64,000 nt of DNA from an uncultured Candidatus Binatia bacterium (GCA_965200965.1 OZ241744.1:224001-288000); one strand, 5' to 3'. Counted from the first letter of the stretch, positions 35,797-64,000 are shown. Numbers and translations are program-made. The notes: generated by a model from the letters alone, not told the origin.

Positions 35797-35800
35797 GCGC

Positions 35801-39061: not shown

Positions 39062-39242
39062 AAAGCGATAGTCTTGTGCACCCAGCCAACTATCGAAAGC
39101 TGCCTGAAGGGAATGTTGCTCGGCGATTGCTTTGCAGAGCGTCGAAGCAACCCGGGGCAGGGCTGTGTGAGTGGGCTGTCCGCTGTCTTCCCGGGGAATT
39201 TTCGGGAGCCATAGCAGGAGCCTGCTGAGAGCGGTTGGGAGG

Positions 39243-45374: not shown

Positions 45375-45386
45375 CCAGCAGAGTCC

Positions 45387-47273: not shown

Positions 47274-47516
47274 TTGCACCTCTTCATATACCCCGGACGA
47301 GCGTCTGTAAAGCGTGGTCAGGCCCCTCAGGCTTGCGGTCGGCGGGCGGGCTTTTGATAGACAGGACGGGACAAGACAGCCAACCACCATGATTGAGGAG
47401 ACTCATATCTCCGCGGGAAACGCAGAACCCGCCCACCACCAGGCTCCGGTACAGTTGGCGATGGGAGATGCCGGTTGGCTCCGGTTCCTGTTCCTGCTGA
47501 GCGACACCCCCGTTCG

Positions 47517-47735: not shown

Positions 47736-50240
47736 CTACTCGGGGGAGGCCCATTCCACCTCCCAGCCCCGGCCAGCCGCAGTGACCTGCCCGGTGCGGA
47801 GACGCGCCAGAGGGTAGGCGGGCAGCCGCACCGTCGCCAGACACTTGTCAGCAAACCGCGCCGCCTGCTGCACATGCGGCAGGCGGTGCCGCCACCGGTG
47901 GAAGCCGAAATCCAGGGCCGCAAACCCGAAGGGCCGCCGCGCAGCGGTCAGCACCGCCCGGTCCCGGGGGAAGACATGCAGGAAGAAGCGCCCCTGCGTG
48001 TCCGCCCGCTGACACCCCGCTTTGACATAGGTCAGGGTCCGCCCGTCCAGGTAGAGGGCAAAGTCAGAGCGGGCCACCGGCGGGGCCGCCACCGCTGCCC
48101 GGTATGTCGCCTCAAGCAGGTCGGTCGCGGTTACGCCAGCAGCCGACCACGCCAGGGCGACGTGCCAGCGATCCACTCCCTCGGGGACGAACAGGCGGGC
48201 TTCAAGGGTTTGGATCGGATAGGGGGGCAGTGTCCGCCGGATCAGACACGCCCCGTCAACGCGGACCCCGTAATCGGGAAAGATGAAGTTCAGGACCTCA
48301 GTGCCTGGCACTCGACGCCACGCGGGGCGGTCGGCAGCGGCAGCGTCAGCGTCAGCGGGGTCCACGGGCACGACATGGACCACGAAGCGCCCCCGCACAT
48401 CGGCCGGCCGGCAGGGGGCCTTCACCCAGGTCAGGGTGGTCCCCTCCAGGTACAGGTCGAACGCCGAGCGGAGGAGGGGCGGCCCGGCGGTGGTGGCCCG
48501 GTAGAGTTGCTGGTAGCGCTCGACGGTGGCCGCGTCCACCAGGGCCGGGTCGCTTGCGCTCACCGTGAGGATGGTGTTGTTGTAGACTTGGCGGGTGTAG
48601 ACAACGGGTGCGAAGGGGCGATCAAGGCTGTCTCTCCACCCAGTGAACACATGAGAGGTCACATGAAAGTCTCCCTCCTCCTCCATTCCGTCGGCGAAGA
48701 CAATGCGACGCCGGGCTGCCTTGGGAAGGATGTCCCAGTTCCTTATGTGACGGCCGGTGGGATGGCCATTGGGACGGCCCGACGCCAGAGAGACAGGTGA
48801 AGTGGGATAGCGCTGGAGCAGATATTCCAGCCCCTCCCGGTACACCGTCCCCCAGTAGTCCATGTCATACTGCCCACGCAGGTACTCGGGCGTACTCCGG
48901 TCCACCAGCCGGTTGAAATAGAGGTGCTGGTAGGGATGAAGCCCAACCATTTCGATGACCACGCCAGCCAGACCAGCTACGGCCAGGCCATAGACACCGG
49001 CCCGCAGGGCTGGCCAGCGGCATACGCCAGCCAGCCGCCGCAGACCGGCCACGGCCAGCAGACACAGCGGGGCGTAGAGGAAATACATCTGCCGCCAGTT
49101 GTGGTAGACGTTGGCATTGAGGACGATGACGGCCCCAACGGGCAGGAGCACACAGGCCACGAGCAGCCCCTCAAAGCGGGTGGTGGGGTTGCGGAGCCAC
49201 TCGCCGGGGTGGGTCAGAGTCTGCCGGAGCACACCAGCCGCCCCGATGAGGCTCAGCAGCAGCACGCCCGGCGGGGTGGTGATGGCCAGCCAGGTCGGAA
49301 TGTAGTGCGCCGGAAGGTCCGGCCAGCGGATGACCTCGCCTTGAAAGAGCATAGTAGGACGGTGAGAGTGCTGGGAGAGAACTGCAATCGCGTCAAGCAG
49401 CTCCAGCGGATTGCCCCACAGATAGGGCGAGACCGCATACAGCGTCAAGACACTGGCCAGCCCGAACACCCCCAGCGTCCTCCCCACCTGCCGCCGTTCC
49501 GCCCGATTTCCCGCTCGCACCCAATCCACTACCCGCATCACCATCACCGCCACAAACAATCCCCCGCCCATGATGCGTAAGTTCGTTGCGACCCCCACCC
49601 CTACCCCACACAGCGCATACGCCCCCACCCCCCCCCGCTGCCACGCCCGATGAATCAGGGCCAGACAGCCCAGGAAGGCCACCAGGAAGGGGATGTCCTT
49701 GGTGTTGACAAACGAGTGGGCATACAGCCGGGGATGGAGGACGAAGAGGCCGAGGGCCAGCAGGGCCAGCCAGCGGCTGCCGAACAGCCGGGCGGCCAGC
49801 CAGGCCGCGCCCCCGCCGCCGGCCAGAAAGCAGAGGTGGGTGAGCAGATGGCGGCTCAAGTAGATGGCGCGGCTGTCGGTGAGGCCGAGCAGCCGCTCAA
49901 CCAGGACCAACGGCACTTCGAAGACAATGCCGTAGTAGCGGTTGTGGGGGGGACCGGGGGGGCGCAGGGTCTCGGTGTCGCCCAGCGCATAGGCGATTGC
50001 CGCCTGGCCGATCCCGTGTTGCTCCTTCTCGTCCCACCCCACCCCGTAATCGTCAAGGACGGCCAGGCCCACCACGGCCAGCACCGCCAGGGCCAGCAGG
50101 ACACTGTGGGCGGCCACGAAGGCCACCGCCGCCGTGGACCAGCGGCCCACGGACCGGGGGACAGAGGTCACGATGAGCCTGCCCAGGTGGGCGGCCATGG
50201 AGGTGCCGCCAGCCGTGCCCCGAATGTCAGCCGGCCTCAA
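47736..50240 (-). CDS. GT-C fold (ArnT/PMT-like) membrane glycosyltransferase, copy 1
   Basis: DDYGVGWDE after TM1, multiple TM segments, HPRLYAHSF.NTKD, WRQMYF, duplicated C-terminal domain. Confidence 0.8.
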   Translation of the reverse strand: MRPADIRGTAGGTSMAAHLGRLIVTSVPRSVGRWSTAAVAFVAAHSVLLALAVLAVVGLAVLDDYGVGWDEKEQHGIGQAAIAYALGDTETLRPPGPPHNRYYGIVFEVPLVLVERLLGLTDSRAIYLSRHLLTHLCFLAGGGGAAWLAARLFGSRWLALLALGLFVLHPRLYAHSFVNTKDIPFLVAFLGCLALIHRAWQRGGVGAYALCGVGVGVATNLRIMGGGLFVAVMVMRVVDWVRAGNRAERRQVGRTLGVFGLASVLTLYAVSPYLWGNPLELLDAIAVLSQHSHRPTMLFQGEVIRWPDLPAHYIPTWLAITTPPGVLLLSLIGAAGVLRQTLTHPGEWLRNPTTRFEGLLVACVLLPVGAVIVLNANVYHNWRQMYFLYAPLCLLAVAGLRRLAGVCRWPALRAGVYGLAVAGLAGVVIEMVGLHPYQHLYFNRLVDRSTPEYLRGQYDMDYWGTVYREGLEYLLQRYPTSPVSLASGRPNGHPTGRHIRNWDILPKAARRRIVFADGMEEEGDFHVTSHVFTGWRDSLDRPFAPVVYTRQVYNNTILTVSASDPALVDAATVERYQQLYRATTAGPPLLRSAFDLYLEGTTLTWVKAPCRPADVRGRFVVHVVPVDPADADAAAADRPAWRRVPGTEVLNFIFPDYGVRVDGACLIRRTLPPYPIQTLEARLFVPEGVDRWHVALAWSAAGVTATDLLEATYRAAVAAPPVARSDFALYLDGRTLTYVKAGCQRADTQGRFFLHVFPRDRAVLTAARRPFGFAALDFGFHRWRHRLPHVQQAARFADKCLATVRLPAYPLARLRTGQVTAAGRGWEVEWASPE

Positions 50241-52783
50241 GAGCGTGCTCCCGATGAGGCCGGAACGGGCCAGCCCACCTGATCGGCCACAGGAAATTCA
50301 ACTGCCCAGACCGGCTTCTCGCTGGCGACCTGCCCGGTGCGGAGCCGTGCCAGAGGATAGGCGGGCAGCCGCACCGTCGCCAGACACTTGTCAGCAAACC
50401 GCGCCGCCTGCTGCACATGCGGCAGGCGGTGCCGCCACCGGTGGAAGCTGAAATCCAGGACCGCAAACCCGAAGGGCCGCCGCGCAGCGGCCAGCACGGC
50501 CCGGTCCCGGGGGAAGACATGCAGGAAGAAGCGCCCCTGCGTGTCCGCCCGCTGACACCCCTCTTTGACATAGGTCAGGGTCCGCCCGTCCAGGTAGAGG
50601 GCAAAGTCAGAGCGGGCCACCGGCGGGGCCGCCACCGCTGCCCGGTATGTCGCCTCAAGCAGGTCGGTCGCGCGCACGCCAGCAGGTGCCAAGTCAATGC
50701 TTACTCTCCAAAGATCGGGTCCCCCGGGGACGAACAGGCGGGCTTCAAGGGTTTGGATCGGATAGGGGGGCAGTGTCCGCCGGATCAGACACGCCCCGTC
50801 AACGCGGACCCCGTAATCGGGAAAGATGAAGTTCAGGACCTCAGTGCCTGGCGTTCGCCGCCACGCGGGGCGGTCGGCAGCGGCAGCGTCAGCGGGGTCC
50901 ACGGGCACGACATGGACCACGAAGCGCCCCCGCACATCGGCCGGCCGGCAGGGGGCCTTCACCCAGGTCAGGGTGGTCCCGTCCAGGTACAGGTCGAACG
51001 CCGAGCGGAGGAGGGGCGGCCCGGCGGTGGTGGCCCGGTAGAGTTGCCGGTAGCGCTCGGCGGTGGCCGCATCCACCAGAGCGGGGTCGCTCGCGCTCAC
51101 CGTGAGGATGGTGTTGTTGTAGACTTGGCGGGTGTAGACAATGGGTGCGAAGGGGTGATCAAAGCGGTCTCCCCACCCAGTGAACACATGAGAGGTCACA
51201 TAAAAGTCCCCCTCCTCCTCCATTCCGTCGGCGAAGACAATGCGACGCCGGGCTGCCTTGGGCAGGATACCCCGGTTCATGGTGTACTGGATGCCGGGAC
51301 GGCCGCTGGGACGGCTCGGCACTAGAGAGACGGGTGAGGCGGGATAGCGCTGAAGCAGATATTCCAGCCCCTCCCGGTACGTCTGTGAGCGGTACGCTTC
51401 GTAGTACTGCCCACGCAGGTACTCGGGCGTGTTCCGGTCCACCAGCCAGTTGAAATAGACATACTGATGAGGATGAATCCCAACCATTTCGATGACCACG
51501 CCAGCCAGGCCAGCCATGGCCAGGCCATAGACACCGGCCCGCAGGGCCGGCCAGCGGCACACGCCAGCCAGCCGCCGCAGACCAGCCACAGCCAGCAGAC
51601 ACAGCGGGGCGTAGAGGAAATACATCTGCCGCCAGCCGTTGTGGACATTGGCATTGAGGACGATGACGGCCCCAACGGGCAGGAGCACGCAGGCCACGAG
51701 CAGGCCCTCAAAGCGGGTGGTGGGGTTGCGGAGCAGCTCGCCGGGGTGGGTCAGAGTCCGCCAGAGCACGCCAGCCGCCCCGATGAGGCTCAGCAGCAGC
51801 ACGCCCGGCGGGGTGGTGATGGCCAGCCAGGTCGGAATGTAGTGCGCCGGAATAGCCGGCCAGTGGATGAGTTCGCCTTGAAAGAGCATAGTAGGACGGT
51901 GAGGGTGCTGGGAGAGAACCGTGAATGTTTCGACCACCTCCAGGGGATTGCTCCACAGATGGGGCGAGACCGCATACAGCGTCAAGACACTGGCCAGCCC
52001 GAACACCCCCAGCGTCCTCCCCACCTGCCGCCGTTCCGCCCGATTTCCCGCCCGCACCCAATCCACCACCCGCATCACCATCACCGCCACAAACAATCCC
52101 CCACCCATGATGCGTAAGTTCGTTGCGACCCCCACCCCCACCCCACACAGCGCATACGCCCCCACCCCCCCCCGTTGCCACGCCCGGTGAATCAGGGCCA
52201 GACAGCCCAGGAAGGCCACCAGGAAGGGGATGTCCTTGGTGTTGAAAAACGAGTGGGCATACAGCCGGGGATGGAGGACGAAGAGGCCGAGGGCCAGCAG
52301 GGCCAGCCAGCGGCTGCCGAACAACCGGGCGGCCAGCCAGGCCGCGCCCCCGCCGCCGGCCAGAAAGCAGAGGTGGGTGAGGAGATGGCGGCTCAAGTAG
52401 ATGGCGCGGCTGTCGGTGAGACCCAGCAGCCGCTCAACCAGCACCAGCGGTACTTCGAAGACAACGCCGTAGTAGCGGTCATAGGGAGGGAGACCGGGGG
52501 GCGCGTGCAGGGTCTCGGTGTCGCCTAGCGCATAGGCGATTGCCGCCTGGGTAATTCGGCGTTGGGCTGTCTCGTCCCACCCCACCCCGTAATCGTCAAG
52601 AACGGCCAAGCCCACCACGGCCAGCACCGCCAGGGCCAGCAGGACACTGTGGCGGGCCACGAAGGCCACCGCCGCCGTGGACCAGCGGCCCACGGACCGG
52701 GGGACAGAGGTCACGATGAGCCTGCCCAGGTGGGCGGCCATGGAGGTGCCGCCAGCCGTGCCCCGAATGTCAGCCGGCCTCAA
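50237..52783 (-). CDS. GT-C membrane glycosyltransferase, copy 2
   Basis: Same motifs as copy 1. Confidence 0.8.
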   Translation of the reverse strand: MRPADIRGTAGGTSMAAHLGRLIVTSVPRSVGRWSTAAVAFVARHSVLLALAVLAVVGLAVLDDYGVGWDETAQRRITQAAIAYALGDTETLHAPPGLPPYDRYYGVVFEVPLVLVERLLGLTDSRAIYLSRHLLTHLCFLAGGGGAAWLAARLFGSRWLALLALGLFVLHPRLYAHSFFNTKDIPFLVAFLGCLALIHRAWQRGGVGAYALCGVGVGVATNLRIMGGGLFVAVMVMRVVDWVRAGNRAERRQVGRTLGVFGLASVLTLYAVSPHLWSNPLEVVETFTVLSQHPHRPTMLFQGELIHWPAIPAHYIPTWLAITTPPGVLLLSLIGAAGVLWRTLTHPGELLRNPTTRFEGLLVACVLLPVGAVIVLNANVHNGWRQMYFLYAPLCLLAVAGLRRLAGVCRWPALRAGVYGLAMAGLAGVVIEMVGIHPHQYVYFNWLVDRNTPEYLRGQYYEAYRSQTYREGLEYLLQRYPASPVSLVPSRPSGRPGIQYTMNRGILPKAARRRIVFADGMEEEGDFYVTSHVFTGWGDRFDHPFAPIVYTRQVYNNTILTVSASDPALVDAATAERYRQLYRATTAGPPLLRSAFDLYLDGTTLTWVKAPCRPADVRGRFVVHVVPVDPADAAAADRPAWRRTPGTEVLNFIFPDYGVRVDGACLIRRTLPPYPIQTLEARLFVPGGPDLWRVSIDLAPAGVRATDLLEATYRAAVAAPPVARSDFALYLDGRTLTYVKEGCQRADTQGRFFLHVFPRDRAVLAAARRPFGFAVLDFSFHRWRHRLPHVQQAARFADKCLATVRLPAYPLARLRTGQVASEKPVWAVEFPVADQVGWPVPASSGARS

Positions 52784-55326
52784 GAGCGTGCTCCCGATGA
52801 GGCCGGAACGGGCCAGCCCACCTGATCGGCCACAGGAAATTCAACTGCCCAGACCGGCTTCTCGCTGGCGACCTGCCCGGTGCGGAGCCGTGCCAGAGGA
52901 TAGGCGGGCAGCCGCACCGTCGCCAGACACTTGTCAGCAAACCGCGCCGCCTGCTGCACATGCGGCAGGCGGTGCCGCCACCGGTGGAAGCTGAAATCCA
53001 GGACCGCAAACCCGAAGGGCCGCCGCGCAGCGGCCAGCACGGCCCGGTCCCGGGGGAAGACATGCAGGAAGAAGCGCCCCTGCGTGTCCGCCCGCTGACA
53101 CCCCTCTTTGACATAGGTCAGGGTCCGCCCGTCCAGGTAGAGGGCAAAGTCAGAGCGGGCCACCGGCGGGGCCGCCACCGCTGCCCGGTATGTCGCCTCA
53201 AGCAGGTCGGTCGCGCGCACGCCAGCAGGTGCCAAGTCAATGCTTACTCTCCAAAGATCGGGTCCCCCGGGGACGAACAGGCGGGCTTCAAGGGTTTGGA
53301 TCGGATAGGGGGGCAGTGTCCGCCGGATCAGACACGCCCCGTCAACGCGGACCCCGTAATCGGGAAAGATGAAGTTCAGGACCTCAGTGCCTGGCGTTCG
53401 CCGCCACGCGGGGCGGTTGGCAGCGTCAGCGGGGTTCACGGGCACGACATGGACCACGAAGCGCCCCCGCACATCGGCCGGCCGGCAGGGGGCCTTCACC
53501 CAGCTCAAGGTGGTCCCGTCCAGGTACAGGTCGAACGCCGAGCGGAGGAGGGGCGGCCCGGCGGTGGTGGCCCGGTAGAGTTGCCGGTAGCGCTCGGCGG
53601 TGGCCGCATCCACCAGGGCCGGGTCGATCGCGCTCACCGTGAGGATGGTGTTGTTGTAGACTTGGCGGGTGTAGACAATGGGTGCGAAGGGGTGATCAAA
53701 GCGGTCAAGCCACGCGCTGAACATGTGATTGGTCACATAAAAGTCCCCCTCCTCCTCCATTCCGTCGGCGAAGACGATACGGTTCCGGTCCGCCTTGGGA
53801 AGGATGCCCCGGTTCCTTATATAATGGCCGGCGGGGCGGGCATTGGGACGGCCCGGTGCCAGAGAGACGGGTGAGACGGGTTGGCGCTGGAGCAGATATT
53901 CCAGCCCCTCCCGGTACGTTGTCCCCCAGTAGTCCATGTCATACTGCCCACGCAGGTACTCGGGCGTACTCCGGTCCACCAGCCGGTTGAAATAGAGGTG
54001 CTGGTAGGGATGAAGCCCGACCATTTCGATGACCACGCCAGCCAAGCCAGCCACGGCTAGGCCATAGACACCGGCCCGCAGGGCGGGCCAGCGGCACACG
54101 CCAGCCAGCCGCCGCAGACCGGCCACGGCCAGCAGACACAGCGGGGCGTAGAGGAAATACATCTGCCGCCAGCCATTATAGACATTGGCATTGAGGACGA
54201 TGACGACCCCAACGGGCAGGAGCACGCAGGCCACGAGCAGGCCCTCAAAGCGGGTGGTGGGGTTGCGGAGCCACTCGCCGGGGTGGGTCAGAGTCTGCCA
54301 GAGCACACCAGCCGCCCCGATGAGGCTCAGCAGCAGCACGCCCGGCGGGGTGGTGATGGCCAGCCAAGTCGGAATGTAGTGGGCCGGAATGGCCGGCCAG
54401 TGCACGACCTCGCCTTGAAAGAGCCTAGAACCCATGTGAGGATACTGGGAGAAAACCGTAAACGTTTCGACCACCTCCAAGGGATTGCTCCACAGATGGG
54501 GCGAGACCGCATACAGCGTCAAGACACCGGCCAGCCCGAACACCCCCAGCGTCCTCCCCACCTGCCGCCGTTCCGCCCGACTCCCCGCTCGCACCCAATC
54601 CACCACCCGCATCACCATCACCGCCACAAACAATCCCCCACCCATGATGCGTAAGTTCGTTGCGACCCCCACCCCCACCCCACACAGCGCATACGCCCCC
54701 ACCCCCCCCCGCTGCCACGCCCGGTGAATCAGGGCCAGACAGCCCAGGAAGGCCACCAGGAAGGGGATGTCCTTGGTGTTGACAAACGAGTGGGCATACA
54801 GCCGGGGATGGAGGACGAAGAGGCCGAGGGCCAGCAGGGCCAGCCAGCGGCTGCCGAACAGCCGGGCGGCCAGCCAGGCCGCCCCCCCGCCGCCCGCCAG
54901 AAAGCAGAGGTGGGTGAGGAGATGGCGGCTCAAGTAGATGGCGCGGCTGTCGGTGAGACCCAGCAGCCGCTCAACCAGCACCAGCGGCACTTCGAAGACA
55001 ACGCCGTAGTAGCGGGTGTTGGCATGGACGGGGGCCAGCAGGGTCTCGGTGTCGCCCAGCATGTAGTTGACCGCCGCCTGGGCAATTCGGCGCTGCATTG
55101 TCTCGTCCCACGCCACCCCGTAATCGTCAAGGACGGCAAGGCCCACCACGGCCAGAACCGTCAGGGCCAGCAGGACACTGTGGGCGGCCACGAAGGCCAC
55201 AGCCGCCGTGCGCCAGCGGCCCACGGACCGGGGGACGGAGGTCACGATGATCCTGCCCAGGTGGGCGGCCATGGAGGTGCCGCCAGCCGGCTCGGCAGCC
55301 GTACCCCGAATGTCGGCGGGCCTCAA
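52780..55326 (-). CDS. GT-C membrane glycosyltransferase, copy 3
   Basis: Same motifs; DDYGVAWDE. Confidence 0.8.
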   Translation of the reverse strand: MRPADIRGTAAEPAGGTSMAAHLGRIIVTSVPRSVGRWRTAAVAFVAAHSVLLALTVLAVVGLAVLDDYGVAWDETMQRRIAQAAVNYMLGDTETLLAPVHANTRYYGVVFEVPLVLVERLLGLTDSRAIYLSRHLLTHLCFLAGGGGAAWLAARLFGSRWLALLALGLFVLHPRLYAHSFVNTKDIPFLVAFLGCLALIHRAWQRGGVGAYALCGVGVGVATNLRIMGGGLFVAVMVMRVVDWVRAGSRAERRQVGRTLGVFGLAGVLTLYAVSPHLWSNPLEVVETFTVFSQYPHMGSRLFQGEVVHWPAIPAHYIPTWLAITTPPGVLLLSLIGAAGVLWQTLTHPGEWLRNPTTRFEGLLVACVLLPVGVVIVLNANVYNGWRQMYFLYAPLCLLAVAGLRRLAGVCRWPALRAGVYGLAVAGLAGVVIEMVGLHPYQHLYFNRLVDRSTPEYLRGQYDMDYWGTTYREGLEYLLQRQPVSPVSLAPGRPNARPAGHYIRNRGILPKADRNRIVFADGMEEEGDFYVTNHMFSAWLDRFDHPFAPIVYTRQVYNNTILTVSAIDPALVDAATAERYRQLYRATTAGPPLLRSAFDLYLDGTTLSWVKAPCRPADVRGRFVVHVVPVNPADAANRPAWRRTPGTEVLNFIFPDYGVRVDGACLIRRTLPPYPIQTLEARLFVPGGPDLWRVSIDLAPAGVRATDLLEATYRAAVAAPPVARSDFALYLDGRTLTYVKEGCQRADTQGRFFLHVFPRDRAVLAAARRPFGFAVLDFSFHRWRHRLPHVQQAARFADKCLATVRLPAYPLARLRTGQVASEKPVWAVEFPVADQVGWPVPASSGARS

Positions 55327-57800
55327 GAGCGTGCTCCCGATGAGGCTGGAACGGGCCAGCTCACCTGATCGGCCACAGGAAATTCAACTGCCCAGATCGG
55401 CTTCTCGCTGGCGACCTGCCCGGTGCGGAGCCGTGCCAGAGGATAGGCGGGCAGCCGCACCGTCGCCAGACACTTGTCAGCAAACCGCGCCGCCTGCTGC
55501 ACATGCGGCATGTAGTGCCGCCACCAGTCAAAACCAAAATCCAGGACCGCAAACCCGGCTGGCCGCCGTGCAGCGGTCAGCACGGCCCGGTCCCGGGGGA
55601 AGACATGCAGGAAGAAGCGCCCCTGCGTGTCCGCCCGCTGACACCCCGCTTTGACATAGGTCAGGGTCCGCCCCTCCAGGTACAGGGCAAAGTCAGAGCG
55701 GGCCACCGGCGGGGTCGCCACCGCTGCCCGGTATGTCGCCTCAAGCAGGTCGGTCGCACGCACGCCAGCAGCCGACCACGCCAGGGCGACATGCCAGCGA
55801 TCCACGCCCCCGGGGGTGATCAGGCGGGCTTCAAGGGTTTGGATCGCATAAGGGGGAAGCGGGCACCGGATCAGACACGCCCCGTCAAGGCGGACCCCGT
55901 AATCGGAAAAGCCGAAGTTCAGGATTTCAATGCCTGGCCCCGACCGCCACGCAGGGCGGTCGGCAGCGGCAGCGGGGTCCACGGGCACGACATAGACCAC
56001 GAAGCGCCCCCGCATGTCGGCCGGACGGCAGGGCACCTTCACCCAACTCAAGGTGGCCCCCTCCAGGTACAGGTCAAACGCCGAGCGGAGGAGGGGTGGC
56101 TTGGCGGTGGTGGCCCGGTAGAGTTGCCGGTAGCGCTCGGCGGTGGCCGCATCCACCAGGGCCGGATCGCTCGCGCTCACCGTGAGGATGGTGTTGTTGT
56201 AGACTTGACGGGTGTAGACAAGGGGTGCGAAGGGGAGATCACGGCTCTTGTCCCACGGGCTGAACATGTGATCGGTCACATAAAAGTCCCCCTCCTCCTC
56301 CATTCCGTCGGCGAAGACAATGCGACGCCGGTCCGCCTTGGGAAGGCTACCCCAGTTCCGTATTTGATAGGCGGTGGGACGGCCGCTGGAATGGCCCGGC
56401 ACCAGGGAGACGGGTGAGGCGGGATAGCGCTGGAGCAGATATTCCAGCCCCTCCCGGTACGCCGTCCCCCAGCGTCCCTCGTCATACTGCCCACGCAGGT
56501 ACTCGGGCGTGTGCCGGTCCACCAGCCGGTTGAAATAGAGGTGCTGGTAGGGATGAAGCCCCACCATTTCGATGACCACGCCAGCCAGGCCAGCTACGGC
56601 CAAGCCATAGACACCGACCCGCAGGGCCGGCCAGCGGCACACGCCAGCCAGCCGTCGCAGACCGGCCACGGCCAGCAGACACAACGGAGCGTAGAGGAAA
56701 TACATGTGCCGCCAGTTGTTATAGACATTGGCATTGAGGATGATGACGGCCCCAACGGGCAGGAGCACGCAGGCCACGAGCAGGCCCTCAAAGCGGGTGG
56801 TGGGGTTACGGAGCCACTCGCCGGGGTGGGTCAGAGTCTGCCGGAGCACACCAGCCGCCCCGATGAGGCTCAGCAGCAGCACGCCCGGCGGGGTGGTGAT
56901 GGCCAGCCAAGTCGGAATGTAGTGGGCCGGAATGGCCGGCCAGTGAATTGCTTCGCCTTGAAAGAGCATAGTAGGACGGTGAGAGTGCTGGGAGAGAACT
57001 GCAATCGCGTCAAGCAGCTCCAGTGGATTGCCCCACAGATAGGGCGAGACCGTATACAGCGTCAAGACACTGGCCAGCCCGAACACCCCTAGCGTCCTCC
57101 CCACCTGCCGCCGTTCCGCCCGATTTCCCGCTCGCACCCAATCCACCACCCGCCCCCCCACCACCGCCACAAACAATCCCCCGCCCATGATGCGTAAGTT
57201 CGTTGCGACCCCCACCCCCACCCCACACAGCGCATACGCCCCCACCCCCCCCCGCTGCCACGCCCGGTGAATCAGGGCCAGACAGCCCAGGAAGGCCACC
57301 AGGAAGGGAATGTCCTTGGTGTTGAAAAACGAGTGGGCATACAGCCGGGGATGGAGCACGAAGAGGCCGAGGGCCAGCAGGGCCAGCCAGCGGCTGCCGA
57401 ACAGCCGGGAGGCCAGCCAGGCCGCGCCCCCGCCGCCGGCCAGAAAGCAGAGGTGGGTGAGCAGATGGCGGCTCAAGTAGATGGCGCGGCTGTCGGTGAG
57501 ACCCAGCAGCCGCTCAACCAGCACCAGCGGCACTTCGAAGACAACGCCGTAGTAGCGGTCGGAGGGGGGACCGGGGGGGCGCAGGGTCTCGGTGTCGCCC
57601 AGCGCATAGGCGATTGCCGTCTGGGCAATTTGGTGCTGGGCTGTCTCGTCCCACGCCACCCCGTAATCGTCAAGGACGGCCATGCCCACCACGACCAGGA
57701 CGGCCAGGGCCAGCGGGATACTGTGGGCGGCCACGAAGGCCACCGCCGCCGTGCACCAGCGGCCCACGGACCGGGGGACAGAGGGACGCCCGCTTGTCAT
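55323..57800 (-). CDS. GT-C membrane glycosyltransferase, copy 4
   Basis: Same motifs; MTSGRP-type N-terminus. Confidence 0.8.
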   Translation of the reverse strand: MTSGRPSVPRSVGRWCTAAVAFVAAHSIPLALAVLVVVGMAVLDDYGVAWDETAQHQIAQTAIAYALGDTETLRPPGPPSDRYYGVVFEVPLVLVERLLGLTDSRAIYLSRHLLTHLCFLAGGGGAAWLASRLFGSRWLALLALGLFVLHPRLYAHSFFNTKDIPFLVAFLGCLALIHRAWQRGGVGAYALCGVGVGVATNLRIMGGGLFVAVVGGRVVDWVRAGNRAERRQVGRTLGVFGLASVLTLYTVSPYLWGNPLELLDAIAVLSQHSHRPTMLFQGEAIHWPAIPAHYIPTWLAITTPPGVLLLSLIGAAGVLRQTLTHPGEWLRNPTTRFEGLLVACVLLPVGAVIILNANVYNNWRHMYFLYAPLCLLAVAGLRRLAGVCRWPALRVGVYGLAVAGLAGVVIEMVGLHPYQHLYFNRLVDRHTPEYLRGQYDEGRWGTAYREGLEYLLQRYPASPVSLVPGHSSGRPTAYQIRNWGSLPKADRRRIVFADGMEEEGDFYVTDHMFSPWDKSRDLPFAPLVYTRQVYNNTILTVSASDPALVDAATAERYRQLYRATTAKPPLLRSAFDLYLEGATLSWVKVPCRPADMRGRFVVYVVPVDPAAAADRPAWRSGPGIEILNFGFSDYGVRLDGACLIRCPLPPYAIQTLEARLITPGGVDRWHVALAWSAAGVRATDLLEATYRAAVATPPVARSDFALYLEGRTLTYVKAGCQRADTQGRFFLHVFPRDRAVLTAARRPAGFAVLDFGFDWWRHYMPHVQQAARFADKCLATVRLPAYPLARLRTGQVASEKPIWAVEFPVADQVSWPVPASSGARS

Positions 57801-60148
57801 TGAGAGACTCCCGGCAGGGGCCGCCCAGCCCCGGCTCGCTCCGGTAATGCCACGTCCATCTCCCAGCCCCGGCCAGCCTCAGTGACCTGCCCCGTGCGGA
57901 GCCGCACCGGAGGATAGGCCGGCAGCCGCAGCGTCGCCAGACACCTGTCAGCAAACCGCGCCGCCTGCTGCACAGGCGACATGTGGTGCCGCCACCGTTG
58001 GAAGCCGAAATCCAGGACAGCAAACCCGAAGGGACGCTGAGTAGCAGCCAGTACTGGCGAGGCCGCCACCACCGCCCGGTACGTCGCCTGAAGCAGGTCG
58101 GTCGCGCGCACGCCAGCAGGTACCAAGTCAATGGTTACTCTCCAAAGATCGGGTCCCCCGGGGACATGCAGGCGGGCTTCAAGGGCGTGGATCGGATAGG
58201 GGGGCAGTGTCCGCCGGATCAGACACGCCCCGTCAACGCGGACCCCGTAATCGGAAAAGTCGAAACGCAGGATCTCACGGCCTGACTCCTGCAGCCACGC
58301 GGGGCGGTCGGCAGCGTCAGCGGGGTCCACGGGCACGACCTCGACCGCGAAGCGCCCCCGCACATCGGCCGGCCGGCAGGGGGCCTTCACCCAGGTCAGG
58401 GTGGTCCCCTCTAGGTACAGGTCGAACGCCGAGCGAAGGAGGGGCGGCCCGGCGGTGGTGGCCCGGTAGAGTTGCCGGTAGCGCTCGACGGTGGCCGTGT
58501 CCACCACGGCCGGGTCGATCGCGCTCACCGTGAGGATGGTGTTGTTGTAGACTTGGCGGGTGTAGACAACGGGTGCGAAGGGGCGATCAAAGCGGTCTCC
58601 CCACCCAGTGAACGCACGAGAGGTCACATAAAAGTCCCCCTCCTCCTCCATTCCGTCGGCGTAGACAATGCGACGCCGGGCTGCCTTGGCAAGAATGTCC
58701 CGGTTCCTTACTTGATAGCCGGTGGGACGGCCGCTGGGACGGTCCGGCACTAGAGAGATGGGTGAGGCGGGATAGTGCTGGAGCAGATATTCCAGCCCCT
58801 CCCGGTACGCCGTCTCCCAATAGTCCATCTGGTACTGCCCACGCAGGTACTCGGGCGTACTCCGGTCCACCAGCCGGTTGAAATAGAGGTACTGATGGGG
58901 ATGAATCCCAACCATTTCGATGACCACGCCAGCCAGGCCAGCCACGGCCAGGCCATAGACACCGGCCCGCAGGGCCGGCCAGCGGCACACGCCAGCCAGC
59001 CGCCGCAGACCGGCCACGGCCAGCAGACACAGCGGGGCGTAGAGGAAATACATCTGCCGCCAGCCGCCGTAGACGCTGGCATTGAGGACGATGACGGCCC
59101 CAACGGGTAGGAGCACACAGGCCACAAGCAGGCCCTCAAAACGGGTGGTGGGGTTGCGGAGCAACTCGCCAGGGTGGGTCAGCCCCCGCCGGAGCACGCC
59201 AGCCGCCCCGATGAGGCTCAGCAGCAGCACGCCCGGCGGGGTGGTGATGGCCAGCCAGGTCGGAATGTAGTGCGCCGGAATGGCCGGCCAGCGGATAACC
59301 TCGCCTTGAAAGAGCATAGTAGGACGGATGGGGTGCTGGGAGAGGACTGCAATCGCGTCAAGCAGCTCCAGCGGATTGCCCCACAGATAGGGCGAGACCG
59401 CATACAGCGTCAAGACACTGGCCAGCCCGAACACCCCCAGCGTCCTCCCCACCTGCCGCCGTTCCGCCCGACTCCCCGCCCGCACCCAATCCACTACCCG
59501 CATCACCATCACCGCCACAAACAATCCCCCGCCCATGATGCGTAAGTTCGTTGCGACCCCCACCCCCACCCCACACAGCGCATACGCCCCCACCCCCCCC
59601 CGCTGCCACGCCCGGTGAATCAGGGCCAGACAGCCCAGGAAGGCCACCAGGAAGGGGATGTCCTTGGTGTTGAAAAACGAGTGGGCATACAGCCGGGGAT
59701 GGAGCACGAAGAGGCCGAGGGCCAGCAGGGCCAGCCAGCGGCTGCCGAACAGCCGGGAGGCCAGCCAGGCCGCACCCCCGCCGCCAGCCAGAAAGCACAG
59801 GTGGGTGAGCAGATGGCGGCTCAAGTGGATAGCACGGCTGTCGGTGAGACCCAGCAGCCGCTCAACCAGGACCAGCGGCACTTCGAAGACAACGCCGTAG
59901 TAGCGGTTGTGGGGGGGACTGGGGGGGCGCAGGGTCTCGGTCTCGCCCAGCGCATAGGCGATTGCCGCTTGGCCAATCCCACGTTGATACTCCTCGTCCG
60001 GCCCCACCCCGTAATCATCAAGGACGGCTAGGCCCACCACGGCCAGCACCGCCAGGGCCAGCAGGACACTGTGGCGGGCCACGAAGGCCACCGCCGCCGT
60101 GCCCCAGCCGGCCACGGACCGGGGAACGGAGGGACGCCCGCTGGTCAT
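57797..60148 (-). CDS. GT-C membrane glycosyltransferase, copy 5 (~41-aa in-frame deletion in the second C-terminal domain)
   Basis: DDYGVGPDE; AASPVLAATQRPF replaces the longer segment seen in the other copies. Confidence 0.8.
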   Translation of the reverse strand: MTSGRPSVPRSVAGWGTAAVAFVARHSVLLALAVLAVVGLAVLDDYGVGPDEEYQRGIGQAAIAYALGETETLRPPSPPHNRYYGVVFEVPLVLVERLLGLTDSRAIHLSRHLLTHLCFLAGGGGAAWLASRLFGSRWLALLALGLFVLHPRLYAHSFFNTKDIPFLVAFLGCLALIHRAWQRGGVGAYALCGVGVGVATNLRIMGGGLFVAVMVMRVVDWVRAGSRAERRQVGRTLGVFGLASVLTLYAVSPYLWGNPLELLDAIAVLSQHPIRPTMLFQGEVIRWPAIPAHYIPTWLAITTPPGVLLLSLIGAAGVLRRGLTHPGELLRNPTTRFEGLLVACVLLPVGAVIVLNASVYGGWRQMYFLYAPLCLLAVAGLRRLAGVCRWPALRAGVYGLAVAGLAGVVIEMVGIHPHQYLYFNRLVDRSTPEYLRGQYQMDYWETAYREGLEYLLQHYPASPISLVPDRPSGRPTGYQVRNRDILAKAARRRIVYADGMEEEGDFYVTSRAFTGWGDRFDRPFAPVVYTRQVYNNTILTVSAIDPAVVDTATVERYRQLYRATTAGPPLLRSAFDLYLEGTTLTWVKAPCRPADVRGRFAVEVVPVDPADAADRPAWLQESGREILRFDFSDYGVRVDGACLIRRTLPPYPIHALEARLHVPGGPDLWRVTIDLVPAGVRATDLLQATYRAVVAASPVLAATQRPFGFAVLDFGFQRWRHHMSPVQQAARFADRCLATLRLPAYPPVRLRTGQVTEAGRGWEMDVALPERAGAGRPLPGVSQ

Positions 60149-62281
60149 TGAGGGACTCCCGGCAGGGGCCGCCCCGCCCCGCCTCGCTCCGGCAACGCCA
60201 CGTCCACCGCCCAGCCCCCGCCCGCCTCAGCGACCTGCCCGGTGCGGAGACGCGCCAGAGGATAGGAGGGCAGTTGTACCGTCGCCAGACACTTGTCAGC
60301 AAACCGCGCCGCCTGCTGTACATGCGAAATGTCATGCCGCCACCAGTCAAAACCGAAATCCAGGACCGCAAACCCCAAGGACCGCCGCGCAGCGGCCAGC
60401 ACCCCCCGGTCCCGGGGGAAGACCTCCAGGAAGAAGCGCCCCCGCGTGTCCGCCGGCTGACACCCCGCTTTGACATACGTCAGGGTCCGCCCCTCCAGGT
60501 ACAGGGCAAAGGCAGAGCGGGCCACCGGCGGGGCCGCCACCACCGCCCGGTACCGCGCCTCAAGCAGGTCGGTCGCACGCACGCCAGCAGCCGACCACGC
60601 CAGGGCAACGTGCCAGCGATCCACGCCATCGGGGGCGACCAGGCGGGCTTCAAGCGTTTGGATCGCATAGGGAGGCAGCGGGGGCCGGAGCAGACACGTC
60701 CCGTCAAAGTGGACCCCGTAATCGAAAAAGTCGAAATGCAGGATTTCAATGCCTGGCCCCGGCCGCCACCCGGGGCGGTCGGCAGCGGCAGCGGGGTCCA
60801 CGGGCAGGACATAGACCACGAAGCGCCCCCGCACATCGTCCACGCGGCAGGGGGCCTTCGCCCAGCCCAAGGTGGCCCCGTCCAGGTACAGGTCGAACTC
60901 TGAGCGGAGGAGAGGCGGCCCGGCGGTGGTGGCCCGGTAGAGTTGCCGGTAGCGCTCGGCGGTGGCCGCCAGCCGGTTGAAATAGAGGTGCTGGTAGGGA
61001 TGAAGCCCAACCATTTCGATGACCACGCCAGCCAGGCCAGCTACGGCCAGGCCATAGACACCGGCCCGCAGGGCCGGCCAGCGGCACACGCCGACCAGCC
61101 GCCGCAGACCGGCCACGGCCAGCAGACACAACGGGGCGTAGAGGAAATACATGTGCCGCCAGCCGTCGTAGACATTGGCATTGAGGACGATGACGGCCCC
61201 AACGGGCAGGAGCACACAGGCCACGAGCAGCCCCTCAAAGCGGATGGTGGGGTTGCGGAGCAACTCGCCGGGGTGCGTCAGAGTCTGCCAGAGCACACCA
61301 GCCGCCCCGATGAGGCTCAGCAGCAGCACGCCCGGCGGGGTGGTAATGGCCAGCCAGGTCGGAATGTAATGCGCCGGAAGGTCCGGCCAGCGGATGACCT
61401 CGCCTTGAAAGAGCATAGGAGGACGGCGAGGGTGCTGGGAGAGGACTGCAATCGCGTCAAGCAACTCCAAGGGATTGCCCCACAGATAGGGCGAGACCGC
61501 ATACAGCGTCAAGACACTGGCCAGCCCGAACACCCCCAGCGTCCTCCCCACCTGCCGCCGCTCCGCCCGACTCCCCGCCCGCACCCAATCCACCACCCGC
61601 ATCACCACCACCGCCACAAACAATCCCCCGCCCATGATGCGTAAGTTCGTTGCGACCCCCACCCCCACCCCACACAGCGCATACGCCCCCCCCCCCCCGC
61701 TGCCACGCCCGGTGAATCAGGGCCAGACAGCCCAGGAAGGCCACCAGGAAGGGAATGTCCTTGGCGTTGAAAAACGAGTGGGCATACAGCCGGGGATGGA
61801 GGACGAAGAGGCCGAGGGCCAGCAGGGCCAGCCAGCGGCTGCCGAACAACCGGGAGGCCAGCCAAGCCGCGCCCCCACCGCCGGCCAGAAAGCAGAGGTG
61901 GGTGAGGAGATGGCGGCTCAAGTAGATGGCGCGGCTGTCGGTGAGACCCAGCAGCCGCTCAACCAGGACCAGCGGCACTTCGAAGACAACGCCGTAGTAG
62001 CGGTTGTGGAGGGGACCGGTGTCGCGCAGGGTCTCGGTGTCGCCCAGCGCATAGGCGATTGCCGCTTGGCCTCTCCCACGTTGCGACCCCACGTTCCACG
62101 CCACCCCGTTCCTATATTCCCGATCCCCGTCCCACAACACCCCGTAATCGTCAAGAACGGCCAAGCCCACCACGGCCAGCACCGCCAGGGCCAGCAGGAC
62201 ACTGTGGCGGGCCACGAAGGCCACCGCCGCCGTGCCCCAGCCGGCCACGGACCGGGGAACGGAGGGACGCCCGCTGGTCAT
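60145..62281 (-). pseudogene. GT-C glycosyltransferase copy 6, frameshifted at a G13 tract and internally deleted
   Basis: C13 at 61686-61698 versus C5-A-C9 in intact copies; two ORF halves; YFNRL joined directly to AATAERY. Confidence 0.8.
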
Positions 62282-64000
62282 TGAGAGACTCCCGGCAGAG
62301 GCCGCCCAGCCCCGCCTCGCTCCGGCAACGCCACATCCACCGCCCAGCCCCGGCCCGCCTCAGCGACCTGCCCGGTGCGCAGCCGTGCCAGAGGATAGGC
62401 GGGCAGCCGTACCGTCGCCAGACACTTGTCAGCAAACCACGCCGCCTGCTGTACATGCGAAATGTCATGCCGCCACCAGTCAAAACCGAAATCCAGGACC
62501 GTAAACCCCAAGGACCGCCGCGCAGCGGCCAGCACCGCCCGGTCCCGGGGGAAGACATGCAGGAAGAAGCGCCCCTGCGTGTCCGCCCGCTGACACCCCG
62601 CTTTGACATACGTCAGGGTCCGCCCCTCCAGGTACAGGGCAAAGGCAGAGCGGGCCACCGGCGGGGCCGCCACCACCGCCCGGTACCGCGCCTCAAGCAG
62701 GTCGGTCGCACGCACGCCAGCAGCCGACCACGCCAGGGCAACGTGCCAGCGATCCACGCCCCCGGGGGCGATCTGGCGGGCTTCAAGCGTTTGGATCGCA
62801 TAGGGGGGCAGCGGATGCCGGATCAGACACGCCCCGTCAAGGTGGACCCCGTAATCGGAGAAGTCGAAATGCCGGATCTCACGGGCTGGCCCCGGCCGCC
62901 ACCCGAGGCGGTCGGCAGCGGCAGCGGGGTCCACGGGCATGACATAGACCACGAAGCGCCCCCGCACATCGGCCGGCCGGCAGGGGGCCTTCACCCAGGT
63001 CAGGGTGGTCCCGTCCAGGTGCAGGTCGAACGCCGAGCGGAGGAGGGGCGGCCTGTCTGTTGTGGTCCGGTAGAGCTGTTGGTAGCGCTCGGCGGTGGCC
63101 GCATCCACCAGGGCCGGGTCGATCGCGCTCACCGTGAGGATGGTGTTGTTGTAGACTTGGCGGGTGTAGACAATGGGCATGAAGGGGCGATCACGGCTGT
63201 CTCTCCACCCTCCGATCATACGACTGGTCAGAGAAAAGTCCCCCTCCTCCTCTATTCCGTCGGCGTAGACAATGCGACGCCGGGCTGCCTTGGGAAGGAT
63301 GTCCCGGTTCCTTATGTGATTGCCGGTGGGATGGCCAGCGGGACGGCTCGACGCCAGAGAGACAGGTGAAGTGGGATAGCGCTGGAGCAGATATTCCAGC
63401 CCCTCCCGGTACGTTGTCCCCCAGTAGTCCATGTCATACTGCCCACGCAGATACTCGGGCGTGTGCCGGTCCACCAGCCGGTTGAAATAGAGGTGCTGAT
63501 GGGGATGAAGCCCGACCATTTCGATGACCACGCCAGCCAGGCCAGCCACGGCCAAGCCATAGACACCGGCCCGCAGGGCGGGCCAGCGGCATACGCCAGC
63601 CAGCCGCCGCAGACCAGCCACGGCCAGCAGACACAGCGGGGCGTAGAGGAAATACATCTGCCGCCAGCCATTGTTGACATTGGCATTGAGGACGATGACG
63701 GCCCCAACGGGCAGGAGCACGCAGGCCACGAGCAGGCCCTCAAAGCGGGTGGTGGGGTTGCGGAGCCACTCGCCGGGGTGGGTCAGAGTCTGCCAGAGCA
63801 CGCCAGCCGCCCCGATGAGGCTCAGCAGCAACACGCCCGGCGGGGTGGTGATGGCCAGCCAGGTCGGAATGTAGTGCGCCGGAATGGCCGGCCAGCGGAT
63901 GACCTCGCCTTGAAAGAGCATAGGAGGACGGGTAGGGTGCTGGGAGAGGACTGCAATCGCGTCAAGCAGTTCCAGCGGATTGCCCCACAGATAGGGCGAG
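62278..64000 (-). CDS. GT-C membrane glycosyltransferase, copy 7 (5' end outside the window)
   Basis: Frame open to the window edge; same motifs as the other copies. Confidence 0.8.
   Translation of the reverse strand, partial: SPYLWGNPLELLDAIAVLSQHPTRPPMLFQGEVIRWPAIPAHYIPTWLAITTPPGVLLLSLIGAAGVLWQTLTHPGEWLRNPTTRFEGLLVACVLLPVGAVIVLNANVNNGWRQMYFLYAPLCLLAVAGLRRLAGVCRWPALRAGVYGLAVAGLAGVVIEMVGLHPHQHLYFNRLVDRHTPEYLRGQYDMDYWGTTYREGLEYLLQRYPTSPVSLASSRPAGHPTGNHIRNRDILPKAARRRIVYADGIEEEGDFSLTSRMIGGWRDSRDRPFMPIVYTRQVYNNTILTVSAIDPALVDAATAERYQQLYRTTTDRPPLLRSAFDLHLDGTTLTWVKAPCRPADVRGRFVVYVMPVDPAAAADRLGWRPGPAREIRHFDFSDYGVHLDGACLIRHPLPPYAIQTLEARQIAPGGVDRWHVALAWSAAGVRATDLLEARYRAVVAAPPVARSAFALYLEGRTLTYVKAGCQRADTQGRFFLHVFPRDRAVLAAARRSLGFTVLDFGFDWWRHDISHVQQAAWFADKCLATVRLPAYPLARLRTGQVAEAGRGWAVDVALPERGGAGRPLPGVSQ

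Follow-up and report, generated by a model that had tools for sequence, protein, structure and literature searches.

Why should a bacterium carry a head-to-tail series of long membrane-protein genes that are nearly uniform except in a few loops? This question is raised by a 64,000-nucleotide stretch (the window) from the genome of an uncultured, sponge-dwelling Candidatus Binatia bacterium, of which positions 47736-64000 are occupied by such genes. A sequence-only reading had taken them for GT-C glycosyltransferase paralogues with different acceptor specificities.

Organization of the arrays

Positions 47736-64000 hold seven co-oriented minus-strand units, namely five complete ORFs (783-848 aa), one frameshifted unit and one truncated by the window. 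The features referred to below are as follows.

41556..47390, minus strand: tamA (Omp85/POTRA) and tamB; downstream flank, the same in the congener G007; by the comparisons made, outside the system
47736..50240, minus strand: predicted GT-C copy A1_13, which closes array 1; 834 aa from a TTG start; Ig-like domain twice at the C-terminus; PF13231 at 27.9 bits (cut-off 26.1)
50237..52783, minus strand: predicted GT-C copy A1_12; 848 aa; TTG start
52780..55326, minus strand: predicted GT-C copy A1_11; 848 aa; TTG start; 676 identical nt of the 3' part in common with A1_12
52780..52783, minus strand: TTGA junction; in sequence it matches the close of array 2 together with the start (5' end) of the GT4 gene behind it
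55323..57800, minus strand: predicted GT-C copy A1_10; 825 aa; reference copy, used for folding
55365..56153, minus strand: C-terminal Ig/FN3-like domain of A1_10 (~130 aa), present twice; two conserved Cys; outside any Pfam family
56217..56492, minus strand: HV5, HV6 and HV7 in the first periplasmic alpha/beta domain of A1_10; length-variable
56706..56732, minus strand: HV4, predicted external loop 5 of A1_10, immediately ahead of the conserved W-R-x-x-Y motif (Arg364)
56937..57017, minus strand: HV3, predicted external loop 4 of A1_10
57555..57662, minus strand: HV1 and HV2, external loop 1 of A1_10; invariant Asp51 (57648-57650) lies within HV1
57797..60148, minus strand: predicted GT-C copy A1_09; 783 aa; part of the second Ig-like domain deleted
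60145..62281, minus strand: predicted GT-C copy A1_08, frameshifted (ORFs 61457-62281 and 60145-61668); long HV1 insertion; without the first periplasmic domain
61686..61698, minus strand: G13 run at the A1_08 frameshift; G9-T-G5 at the same place in intact copies
62278..64000, minus strand: predicted GT-C copy A1_07; 824 aa; cut by the window end, with its start outside at 64752

Six further copies follow beyond A1_07, up to window-equivalent position 81618. Array 1 comprises 13 units (genome 271.7-305.6 kb), of which the seven in the window are the end, and a second set of 13 units, array 2 (genome 1131.8-1165.2 kb), lies 860 kb from array 1. The proposed multi-copy expansion is therefore borne out, and seven or more co-oriented copies are indeed present, seven in the window and 13 in the array; the uniform size of ~2.5 kb is not, because the C-terminal domain repeats 0-4 times and unit length varies from 1.7 to 3.7 kb. 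Nor are all units intact: the core is kept in 23 of the 26, four are frameshifted and several carry deletions. Each start had been described as overlapping the previous stop by 4 bp in ATGA or TTGA, and this holds at every internal junction of both arrays (20 ATGA and 4 TTGA, n=24), where a ribosome-site-like word (GGGAG, GGGGG or GGGCG) stands ~8 nt upstream and starts are coupled.

Pairwise DNA identity among the 26 copies is 86-97%, and exact shared stretches reach 869 nt with a median of 117 nt; the array is therefore not one copy assembled many times. In 4/4 public read runs the unique flank contig ended at the array edge and the array broke into short pieces, some of them copy-specific and at about flank depth. 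No read-assembled piece spans the array, so copy order is without confirmation from read data. An assembly artefact is ruled out by copy divergence, by the copy-specific pieces at flank depth and by counterparts in a second assembly. The family takes up ~2% of this 3.6-Mb genome and >3% in a congener.

Predicted fold and family identity

The array proteins are predicted to be GT-C-fold membrane glycosyltransferases. The AlphaFold2 model of A1_10 (pLDDT 77.7, but <50 at residues 41-48, 359-362, 415-441 and 514-519, so that several loops have low confidence) contains 11 long helices. The predicted architecture is a GT-C portion with 11 membrane helices, a periplasmic alpha/beta domain and then 0-4 Ig-like domains, with loop topology read from helix order, not from coordinates. 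VIA-align matched the model to AglB (3waj; Z 22.2, 423 aligned, rmsd 6.5), ALG12 (9s6t; Z 22.2, 421 aligned, rmsd 4.6) and ArnT (5ezm; Z 19.5, 347 aligned, rmsd 4.5, 17% identity). STT3 (Z 22), Pmt4 (Z 19.9) and Emb and Aft structures (Z 13-17) were likewise among the fold matches. All of the top 39 hits of the structure comparison were GT-C-fold proteins, as was every one of 19 Foldseek matches at E<=0.001, and PF13231 (PMT_2) exceeded its curated cut-off of 26.1 in 5/5 complete window copies (27.9-30.9 bits). The sequence-only reading had named three outcomes that would overturn it, and none arose in the assemblies and read pieces covered here; one of them was the lack of a predicted GT-C fold, and the fold predicted is GT-C.

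The putative catalytic and motif residues are nearly invariant among 209 family members (D45 in 206, D51 in 206, N160 in 209, D163 in 209, R203 in 209, W363 in 208 and R364 in 200). PMC7801869 gives the GT-C motifs as an acidic residue in EL1, an Asp in EL2, a basic residue in EL3 and RxxY in EL5, and places the acceptor and donor sites in EL1, EL2 and EL4. The conserved residues of the family fit the EL1/EL2/EL3/EL5 motifs described there, with the equivalence of D51 to ArnT D55 (PMC7801869) set by position after helix 1, not by residue-level superposition.

A match to ArnT or GT83 was not found at the level of sequence: two copies searched gave no NCBIfam family, the family profile aligned weakly to E. 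coli ArnT (probability 16%, 140 columns), and structural identity was the 17% given above. A PDB sequence search with the profile returned 0 matches at E<=1. Pfam PMT (PF02366) was found in 0/5 window copies and is present in the precomputed annotation of some homologues of 39-53% identity. The WWDYG motif is the mark of the oligosaccharyltransferase (AglB/PglB/STT3) soluble domain; it is absent from the 23 aligned copies, which instead have a variable Y-x-M-D-Y-W segment (HV5) after the last helix. As to an ArnT-type context, the genome encodes LpxC, a DegT-type aminotransferase lies 13 kb from array 1, and there is no arn cluster among the annotated neighbours, the only genes covered. The family is expanded in Chloroflexota, which are not known to have lipid A.

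The tail domain query gave no Pfam family (2/115 members had a spurious-looking subtilosin match) and no ESM Atlas match. Its best Z among 48,161 chains was 7.5, with none at Z>=8, and thus only a generic Ig/FN3-like sandwich can be claimed. The domain is fused also to other GT-Cs, arylsulfotransferases, SGNH and Wzy_C proteins, and is an unclassified module common to several kinds of extracytoplasmic tailoring enzyme. This repeated domain, the second array, the recombination between copies and the spread across phyla all lay outside the earlier reader's view.

Variation is concentrated in seven loops

Variation among copies is concentrated in seven predicted periplasmic loop segments (HV1-HV7), and the core is near uniform. 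For the 23 copies of this genome (G000), dN and dS were 0.244 and 0.260 in the loops versus 0.028 and 0.097 in the scaffold, that is, a dN/dS of ~1 versus 0.3, in loop windows chosen from amino-acid variability, where dS is also raised, and by pairwise counting, which is crude on recombining copies. The same windows on 41 copies of G007 gave a loop dN/dS of 1.04 (HV5, 1.94) versus 0.50. The near-invariant TM scaffold with differing sequences, as first described, is thus supported. A loop dN/dS near 1 is also expected from relaxed constraint. At family-tolerant sites, within-genome diversity was 0.30 for periplasmic versus 0.055 for membrane/cytoplasmic positions, the direction was the same in 6/6 genome groups, and the same loops are variable in unrelated lineages. 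The most variable residues (50, 53 and 54) flank the invariant Asp51. Because variation flanks putative catalytic residues and is enriched in the periplasm after controlling for family-wide tolerance, we infer that the copies may have different acceptor specificities.

A DGR was rejected as the source of this variation: the one PF00078 match in the genome is split by a stop and far from both arrays, and the variation is not adenine-specific (loop variable fraction by majority base: A 37/64, G 59/110, C 56/116, T 36/67). The vls/pilS layout is one of silent cassettes. An arrangement of truncated, unexpressed donors with one expression site is not what the gene structure shows here: 23/26 units have a full core and coupled starts. 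Three of the 26 units are frameshifted at the same G tract; the A1_08 counterpart in the second assembly, P0028, is in frame, and the tract is absent from all 18 G007 copies examined. Runs of >=12 G/C number 15 genome-wide, so that a consensus error is possible at the tract.

Recombination, strains and species

Near-site incompatibility was 0.451 versus 0.551 after permutation (0/1000 permutations as low), and the nearest-neighbour copy changes segment by segment: the copies are recombinant mosaics. By sequence match, array 1 took its TTGA junction from the last part of array 2. A second conspecific assembly (a contig of 3,603,827 bases) holds 22 family proteins, none identical to a copy in G000. 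P0011 carries the HV5 of another copy, and P0003 and P0021 are mosaics. Fifteen of the 22 are >=95% identical to a particular copy, and turnover is therefore slow, not a rapid switch.

In the congener G007 the same two loci carry at least 48 copies, some of them broken, and the N-terminus of the first gene is common to the G000 and G007 arrays. In the tree, the G000 copies (23 tips, support 0.83) and the G007 copies (21 tips, support 1.0) form separate clades; each genome's copies are homogenised as one clade despite the shared loci, which is concerted evolution. Four other congeners (G001, G002, G003 and G006) gave no family match, and the system is therefore dispensable in the genus. Copy number thus ranges from zero in these four to a ~two-fold difference between the carriers, and no fixed orthologous array was seen across species; it is the presence of such an array in distant relatives that the sequence-only reading had listed as contrary to its proposal. 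The 31-33 kb pheS-tamA interval of G005 and G006 was considered as another array and ruled out, as it holds unrelated cargo. Clusters of at least three copies occur in 10 further genomes of three other phyla, and the family is found in cells with very different envelopes.

Genomic context

Array 2 lies within a surface-glycan gene cluster in both G000 and G007. Its neighbours include GT4, Wzy_C/O-antigen-ligase-like, WcaJ-like, SGNH, carbamoyl-, sulfo- and methyltransferase genes, and in G007 a GT2 of polyprenyl-phosphate type lies 5 kb away. No glycan genes or donor synthase/flippase genes adjoin array 1, and no GtrA was found among the scanned neighbours. An unlinked UbiA/DprE1/DprE2-like donor cassette at 789-797 kb holds two other GT-Cs with the same tail domain. 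Arylsulfotransferases bearing the same C-terminal domain stand between the copies in Spirochaetia and at one Dehalococcoidia locus; neighbours in other phyla are heterogeneous, and among 118 neighbours from 23 loci there was no consistent acceptor gene. Promoter-like sites inside the array numbered 0 versus 1.4 expected, and no recombinase was found among annotated flanks. Phage carriage was rejected (101 viral-contig stretches matched a pattern, 0 confirmed), and plasmids gave one distant single match (27% identity, without the tail).

Discussion

Taken together, we consider it somewhat more probable than its negation that the two arrays are recombining tandem families of predicted GT-Cs, likely a panel of inner-membrane tailoring enzymes for surface glycans or glycoproteins. 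Each array would be one translationally coupled operon, so that several copies are made at once. The donor would be a polyprenyl-phosphate monosaccharide, with a pentofuranose from the UbiA/DprE1/DprE2-like cassette or a hexose from the GT2 as candidates. The seven loops would shape the acceptor pocket round fixed catalytic residues, and each enzyme would transfer the lipid-linked sugar to its own, slightly different position on a glycan or glycoprotein of the cell surface. The scaffold may be kept uniform by unequal crossing-over and by gene conversion, acting inside each array and from one array to the other; the same exchanges may alter the number of copies and domains and, on a time scale from strains to species, yield new combinations of loops. 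Homogenisation of the loops themselves may be opposed by selection for a diverse surface, with phages or the sponge host as the most plausible agents.

It is conceivable, but unlikely, that all copies catalyse one reaction, multiplied by tandem duplication and gene conversion for dosage or neutrally, with loops that are merely tolerant. The overall loop dN/dS of ~1, not clearly above it, the frameshifted, deleted and (in G007 too) broken units and the unstable copy number among congeners would all suit such an expansion; against it, equally family-tolerant membrane/cytoplasmic sites are five-fold less variable within a genome, the most variable residues flank Asp51, and the same pattern recurs in separate expansions of three other phyla. 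A detoxifying repertoire, in which one donor and many acceptor pockets serve to glycosylate extracytoplasmic small molecules or peptides such as host or competitor metabolites, seems to us a little less probable again. GT39-type GT-Cs mannosylate glycopeptide antibiotics, as PMC12049478 describes, and the interleaved same-tail arylsulfotransferases and the very different envelopes of carriers agree with that possibility, whereas the surface-glycan setting of array 2 in both species and the presence of the tail on SGNH and Wzy_C proteins, which act on glycans, do not.

Programmed variation, with position-dependent or phase-variable cassettes of which one or a few are on and with poly-G slippage or rearrangement as the switch, is improbable. 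Three units are frameshifted at one G tract that is in frame in a second-assembly counterpart, and with no internal promoter-like sites expression could fall with distance; yet the tract is absent in G007 and may be a consensus error, annotated flanks have no recombinase, and the copies are full length, have their own start signals and mostly persist between strains. We give least credence to the view that the proteins are non-catalytic receptors on a GT-C scaffold, which would bind or sense through variable surfaces formed by the loops and the Ig-like repeats. Receptor families are indeed called to mind by loops that vary strongly on a constant frame and by Ig/FN3-like repeats of varying number, but among 209 members the putative catalytic and lipid-phosphate-binding positions hardly vary, no cytoplasmic output domain is present, and the cell has LpxC and TamAB, so that a protein of its inner membrane would not be exposed on the outside.

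A panel of surface-tailoring enzymes has relatives in several known systems. Compared with the GT-C superfamily (ArnT, PMT/TMTC, ALG12, AglB/STT3 and mycobacterial Aft/Emb), the array proteins have the same predicted fold, the same order of helices and loops, the acidic residues of EL1 and EL2, the basic residue of EL3 and the RxxY of EL5; they are set apart by an identity to solved members of 8-17%, by a repeated, unclassified tail of Ig-like type and by recombining copies that number 26 to 48+ in a genome. Mycobacterial embCAB likewise consists of tandem GT-C paralogues with C-terminal beta-sandwich domains. However, embCAB is a cluster of three old, fixed orthologues, whereas the array copies are young, have been homogenised within each genome and do not pair as orthologues across species. 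In GtrABC, the Citrobacter pentofuranose systems and TfpW pilin arabinosylation, the GT-C decorates a polymer or protein of the surface with a monosaccharide from a lipid carrier, and such side-chain addition alters phage recognition, according to PMC11194591 and 10.1101/150227. These systems have one or a few GT-Cs beside their own donor genes; in the present case amplification and shuffling affect the GT-C only, array 1 is without adjoining donor genes, and viral contigs yielded no relative.

Outside this superfamily, trypanosomatid UGT arrays (PMC5853035) and the vertebrate UGT1 variable-exon cluster (PMC1885805) are also tandem enzyme families with variable acceptor-binding parts, but they are eukaryotic nucleotide-sugar enzymes of another fold, and the arrays here repeat whole genes and involve no splicing. 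Bacterial gene-conversion antigenic-variation arrays (the subject of a review, PMC4534519) likewise alternate conserved blocks with variable segments exchanged between copies; here, however, the variable molecule is a predicted enzyme and not an antigen, copies are full length and coupled, and exchange appears slow. No description of these arrays was found in the papers searched, where a mention in a supplementary enrichment table could have been missed; the nearest remark, in PMC6306507, counts GT83 with the GT families of highest abundance in sponge Chloroflexi.

More tentatively, and with the odds against it, sponge symbionts of several phyla may share and repeatedly expand an antibody-like GT-C repertoire. 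Dozens of co-expressed enzymes would have a fixed catalytic frame and seven specificity loops reshuffled by gene conversion, a common Ig-like domain would dock them together with sulfo- and acetyltransferases on one surface target, and the product would be a glycan code that differs from strain to strain and is read by phages or by the sponge. The system would have gone unseen because short-read assemblies break at these arrays.

In the arrays nature offers a set of GT-C variants with differences confined almost wholly to the loops that surround the active site, useful material for working out what determines acceptor specificity. They also touch on how a sponge tells its symbionts from food bacteria and how dense symbiont populations face phage, questions in which surface glycans are prime suspects and for which one surface-enzyme family with separate expansions in unrelated lineages is a testable target.

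Results

The sequence-only reading had claimed at least seven head-to-tail, co-oriented copies, and seven minus-strand units were found. Extending the count along the source genome G000, a single contig of 3,620,516 bases, showed these to be the end of a 13-unit array 1 flanked by pheS/pheT and tamA/tamB, and revealed another 13-unit array elsewhere.

Window 47736-64000, minus strand: seven units of array 1
G000 1131.8-1165.2 kb: array 2, 13 units

A protein of more than 500 aa with a complete core is encoded by 23 of the 26 units. Three units are frameshifted, all at one G tract; A2_02 (unit 2 of array 2), which belongs to the 23, has a frameshift close to the C-terminus. At internal junctions, the start overlaps the preceding stop as ATGA (n=20) or TTGA (n=4). 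A sigma-70 scan of 47000-64000 found no promoter-like sites versus 1.4 expected, which would be weakly compatible with one coupled operon.

DNA identity among copies is 86-97%, a divergence that rules out assembly duplication of one copy. A second conspecific assembly (contig of 3,603,827 bases) has at least 22 family proteins listed; 15 of these 22 are at least 95% identical to one G000 copy, none matches one fully, and the remaining seven lack a close intact counterpart in G000. Part of the window is present in 17 of 18 listed public runs and half or more of its words in 10, four of them labelled sponge metagenome. In four runs examined, the unique flank formed one contig ending at 47813-47844, and the array was fragmented into pieces of 100-300 bases, of which some matched the flank in depth and others far exceeded it (depths that do not equal copy numbers); no piece spanned the array.

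All five complete window copies passed the Pfam PMT_2 cut-off. The AlphaFold2 model of the reference copy A1_10 (70-sequence alignment, pLDDT 77.7, pTM 0.66) contains 11 long helices, a periplasmic alpha/beta domain and two beta-sandwiches. All 19 of its Foldseek matches at E<=0.001 were GT-C-fold proteins, as were the 39 best VIA-align rows (VIA-align Z: AglB 22.2, ALG12 22.2, STT3 22.0, Pmt4 19.9, ArnT 19.5), so that the predicted structure, together with PMT_2, supports the proposed GT-C identity. PDB sequence-level and NCBIfam searches gave no match to the family, and its profile alignment to ArnT was weak. D45, D51, N160, D163, R203, W363 and R364 are each conserved in 200-209 of 209 family members. 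PMC7801869 locates GT-C catalytic and lipid-phosphate residues in external loops, and the conserved residues sit in the matching loops, an equivalence by position only.

The Ig-like C-terminal domain (tail) is predicted as a ~130-aa helix-plus-beta-sandwich (pLDDT 90.2) with only generic Ig/FN3-like structural matches (best Z 7.5), and a Pfam search with it returned no family. It occurs 0-4 times per array copy in G000 and on three further GT-C-like genes there; elsewhere, arylsulfotransferases, SGNH and Wzy_C proteins carry it, and it also forms stand-alone repeats, up to 10 times. Tail-fused arylsulfotransferases interleave with GT-C copies in stretches L032, L036, L048 and L073 (Spirochaetia, Dehalococcoidia). 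Tandem runs of other tail-bearing membrane-protein families, one beginning with a DDAFISFRY motif, occur in L023 (G014, same family as G000), L030 (the congener G004) and L094 (a Dehalococcoidia genome), suggesting array expansion in several of these families.

The near-invariant transmembrane scaffold described earlier held in the 23 intact copies: it is nearly frozen, and seven segments (HV1-HV7) differ in sequence and length. Placed by helix order, HV1 and HV2 lie in external loop 1, HV3 in loop 4, HV4 in loop 5 and HV5-7 in the periplasmic domain. Pairwise dN/dS among these copies was 0.94 for loops (dN 0.244, dS 0.260) and 0.28 for scaffold. The segment windows, picked from G000 variability and used unchanged on 41 copies of the congener G007, gave 1.04 (range 0.54-1.94) versus 0.50 for scaffold. 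In 10 other groups, the variability profile correlates with the G000 profile (rho 0.19-0.55). A DGR was ruled out by the absence of adenine bias and of a DGR-type reverse transcriptase; the genome's sole reverse-transcriptase match (L096:1048-2421, G000 2405 kb) is interrupted by a stop and appears Abi-like.

Among the G000 copies (204 informative sites), site pairs within 60 nt were incompatible less often than permuted ones (0.451 vs 0.551), and each copy's nearest neighbour shifts segment by segment, often into the other array. A1_03 and A2_10 have 869 identical bases in common, the second-assembly counterpart of A1_13 has the HV5 of A1_06, and proteins P0003 and P0021 of that assembly are mosaics. 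The TTGA junction, present in four copies of array 1, matches the array 2 end together with a deleted version of the adjoining GT4 gene's 5' end, and the ATGA junction matches the array 2 leader; thus, array 2, which lies in the glycan locus, was the source of these junctions. One unit per array, A1_08 (window 60145-62281) and A2_11 (G000 1135967-1138112), is frameshifted with a common long HV1 insertion and identical loss of the periplasmic domain, suggesting that a copy moved between arrays.

Family matches were found in 5 of 31 related genomes. G007 carries 21 copies between pheS and tamA and at least 27 more at a second locus, where the assembly breaks. No array adjoins pheS or tamA in the congeners G002, G004, G005 and G006, and G003 contigs break in this interval. 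Cargo in the interval (L112-L116) varies across the genus: G000 and G007 have arrays of 34-51 kb there, G005 and G006 have unrelated genes over 31-33 kb, and G004 has 5 kb; a long CRISPR array with cas genes lies near pheS in G002 (L119:3297-8979). A FastTree phylogeny was built from 168 of the 209 cores, with every other copy from G007 and Dehalococcoidia A/B omitted. In it, G000 and G007 copies formed separate clades, copies of the two G000 arrays intermixed, and the 13 copies taken from G014 branched far off. Scaffold dS between G000 and G007 was 0.585 versus 0.15-0.23 for seven single-copy neighbours. Turnover of the family has therefore outpaced that of the genome; either sweeps of different old copies or import could be the route. 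Copies in closely related genome pairs correspond one-to-one, indicating slow turnover.

Of 201 genomes sampled across the phylum, 4 matched, two of them only distantly. Across GTDB, 153 stretches encode family relatives; 23 of the 64 loci kept have at least three copies and come from 10 genomes belonging to Spirochaetia, Chloroflexota and Gammaproteobacteria, and Latescibacterota, Nitrospirales and Longimicrobiales have one or two. Together these lineages make up a typical set of sponge symbionts, with habitat not stated in record titles.

Array 2 adjoins carbamoyltransferase, GT4, Wzy_C, WcaJ-like, SGNH, methyl- and sulfotransferase genes, and its G007 locus has a polyprenyl-phosphate-type GT2, a deacetylase and a GNAT gene. 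Other stretches are as follows.

L108:9112-16834 (G000 789-797 kb): UbiA-type phosphoribosyltransferase, DprE2-like SDR and DprE1-like oxidase flanking two tail-bearing GT-C genes
L106:3785-11591 (G000 1118.8-1126.6 kb): repeated paralogous SGNH/GDSL-like proteins beside array 2
L027 (G014): tandem SGNH/GDSL-like proteins, three tail domains each
Window 24372-41354: island-like, lower GC; GmrSD-N, AAA_15/DUF3696, Hsp70-like, DnaJ-domain, HEPN and STAND-like NTPase genes

In G007, a single 1705-aa frame corresponds to window 39243-41354 and 35801-39061; the gene at 35801-41354 may therefore be split in G000.

Discussion

We consider it somewhat probable that the arrays encode a set of periplasm-facing enzymes that tailor a surface glycan or glycoprotein and have been diversified by gene conversion. 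This reading draws on the glycan context of array 2, the L108 cassette and comparison systems. Judged from its genes, the cassette is likely a polyprenyl-phospho-pentofuranose side-chain system and may provide a lipid-linked pentofuranose. It can be likened to the systems with such a supply summarised in PMC11194591; 10.1101/150227 reports that TfpW-dependent pilin arabinosylation blocks phages.

Loop-focused variation suggests selection favouring diversity close to the putative active site; alternatively, relaxed constraint plus escape from homogenisation may explain the dN/dS near 1 and raised dS. The related idea that the copies raise the dosage of one reaction, their loops being merely tolerant, is unlikely. 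It fits loop dN/dS near 1. Against it stands within-genome diversity at sites tolerant across 47 outside representatives, which was 0.298 on the periplasmic side versus 0.055 in membrane/cytoplasmic parts; the difference had the same direction in 6 of 6 genome groups and also when external loops were taken alone (these sites are not independent, so p-values are overstated). Glycosylation of small molecules seems still less probable next to the surface-glycan genes at array 2. We give little credence to programmed switching and least to a non-catalytic receptor, which would suit the variable loops but is opposed by near-universal conservation of the putative catalytic positions. Lipid A is an unlikely acceptor for the family as a whole, since the family is expanded in Chloroflexota, which are not known to have lipid A; G000 itself has LpxC.

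Our literature search found no account of such GT-C arrays. Taken together, the arrays are a real and, on that search, undescribed form of a known kind of enzyme, with an unusual evolutionary architecture and a proposed function in tailoring the cell surface.
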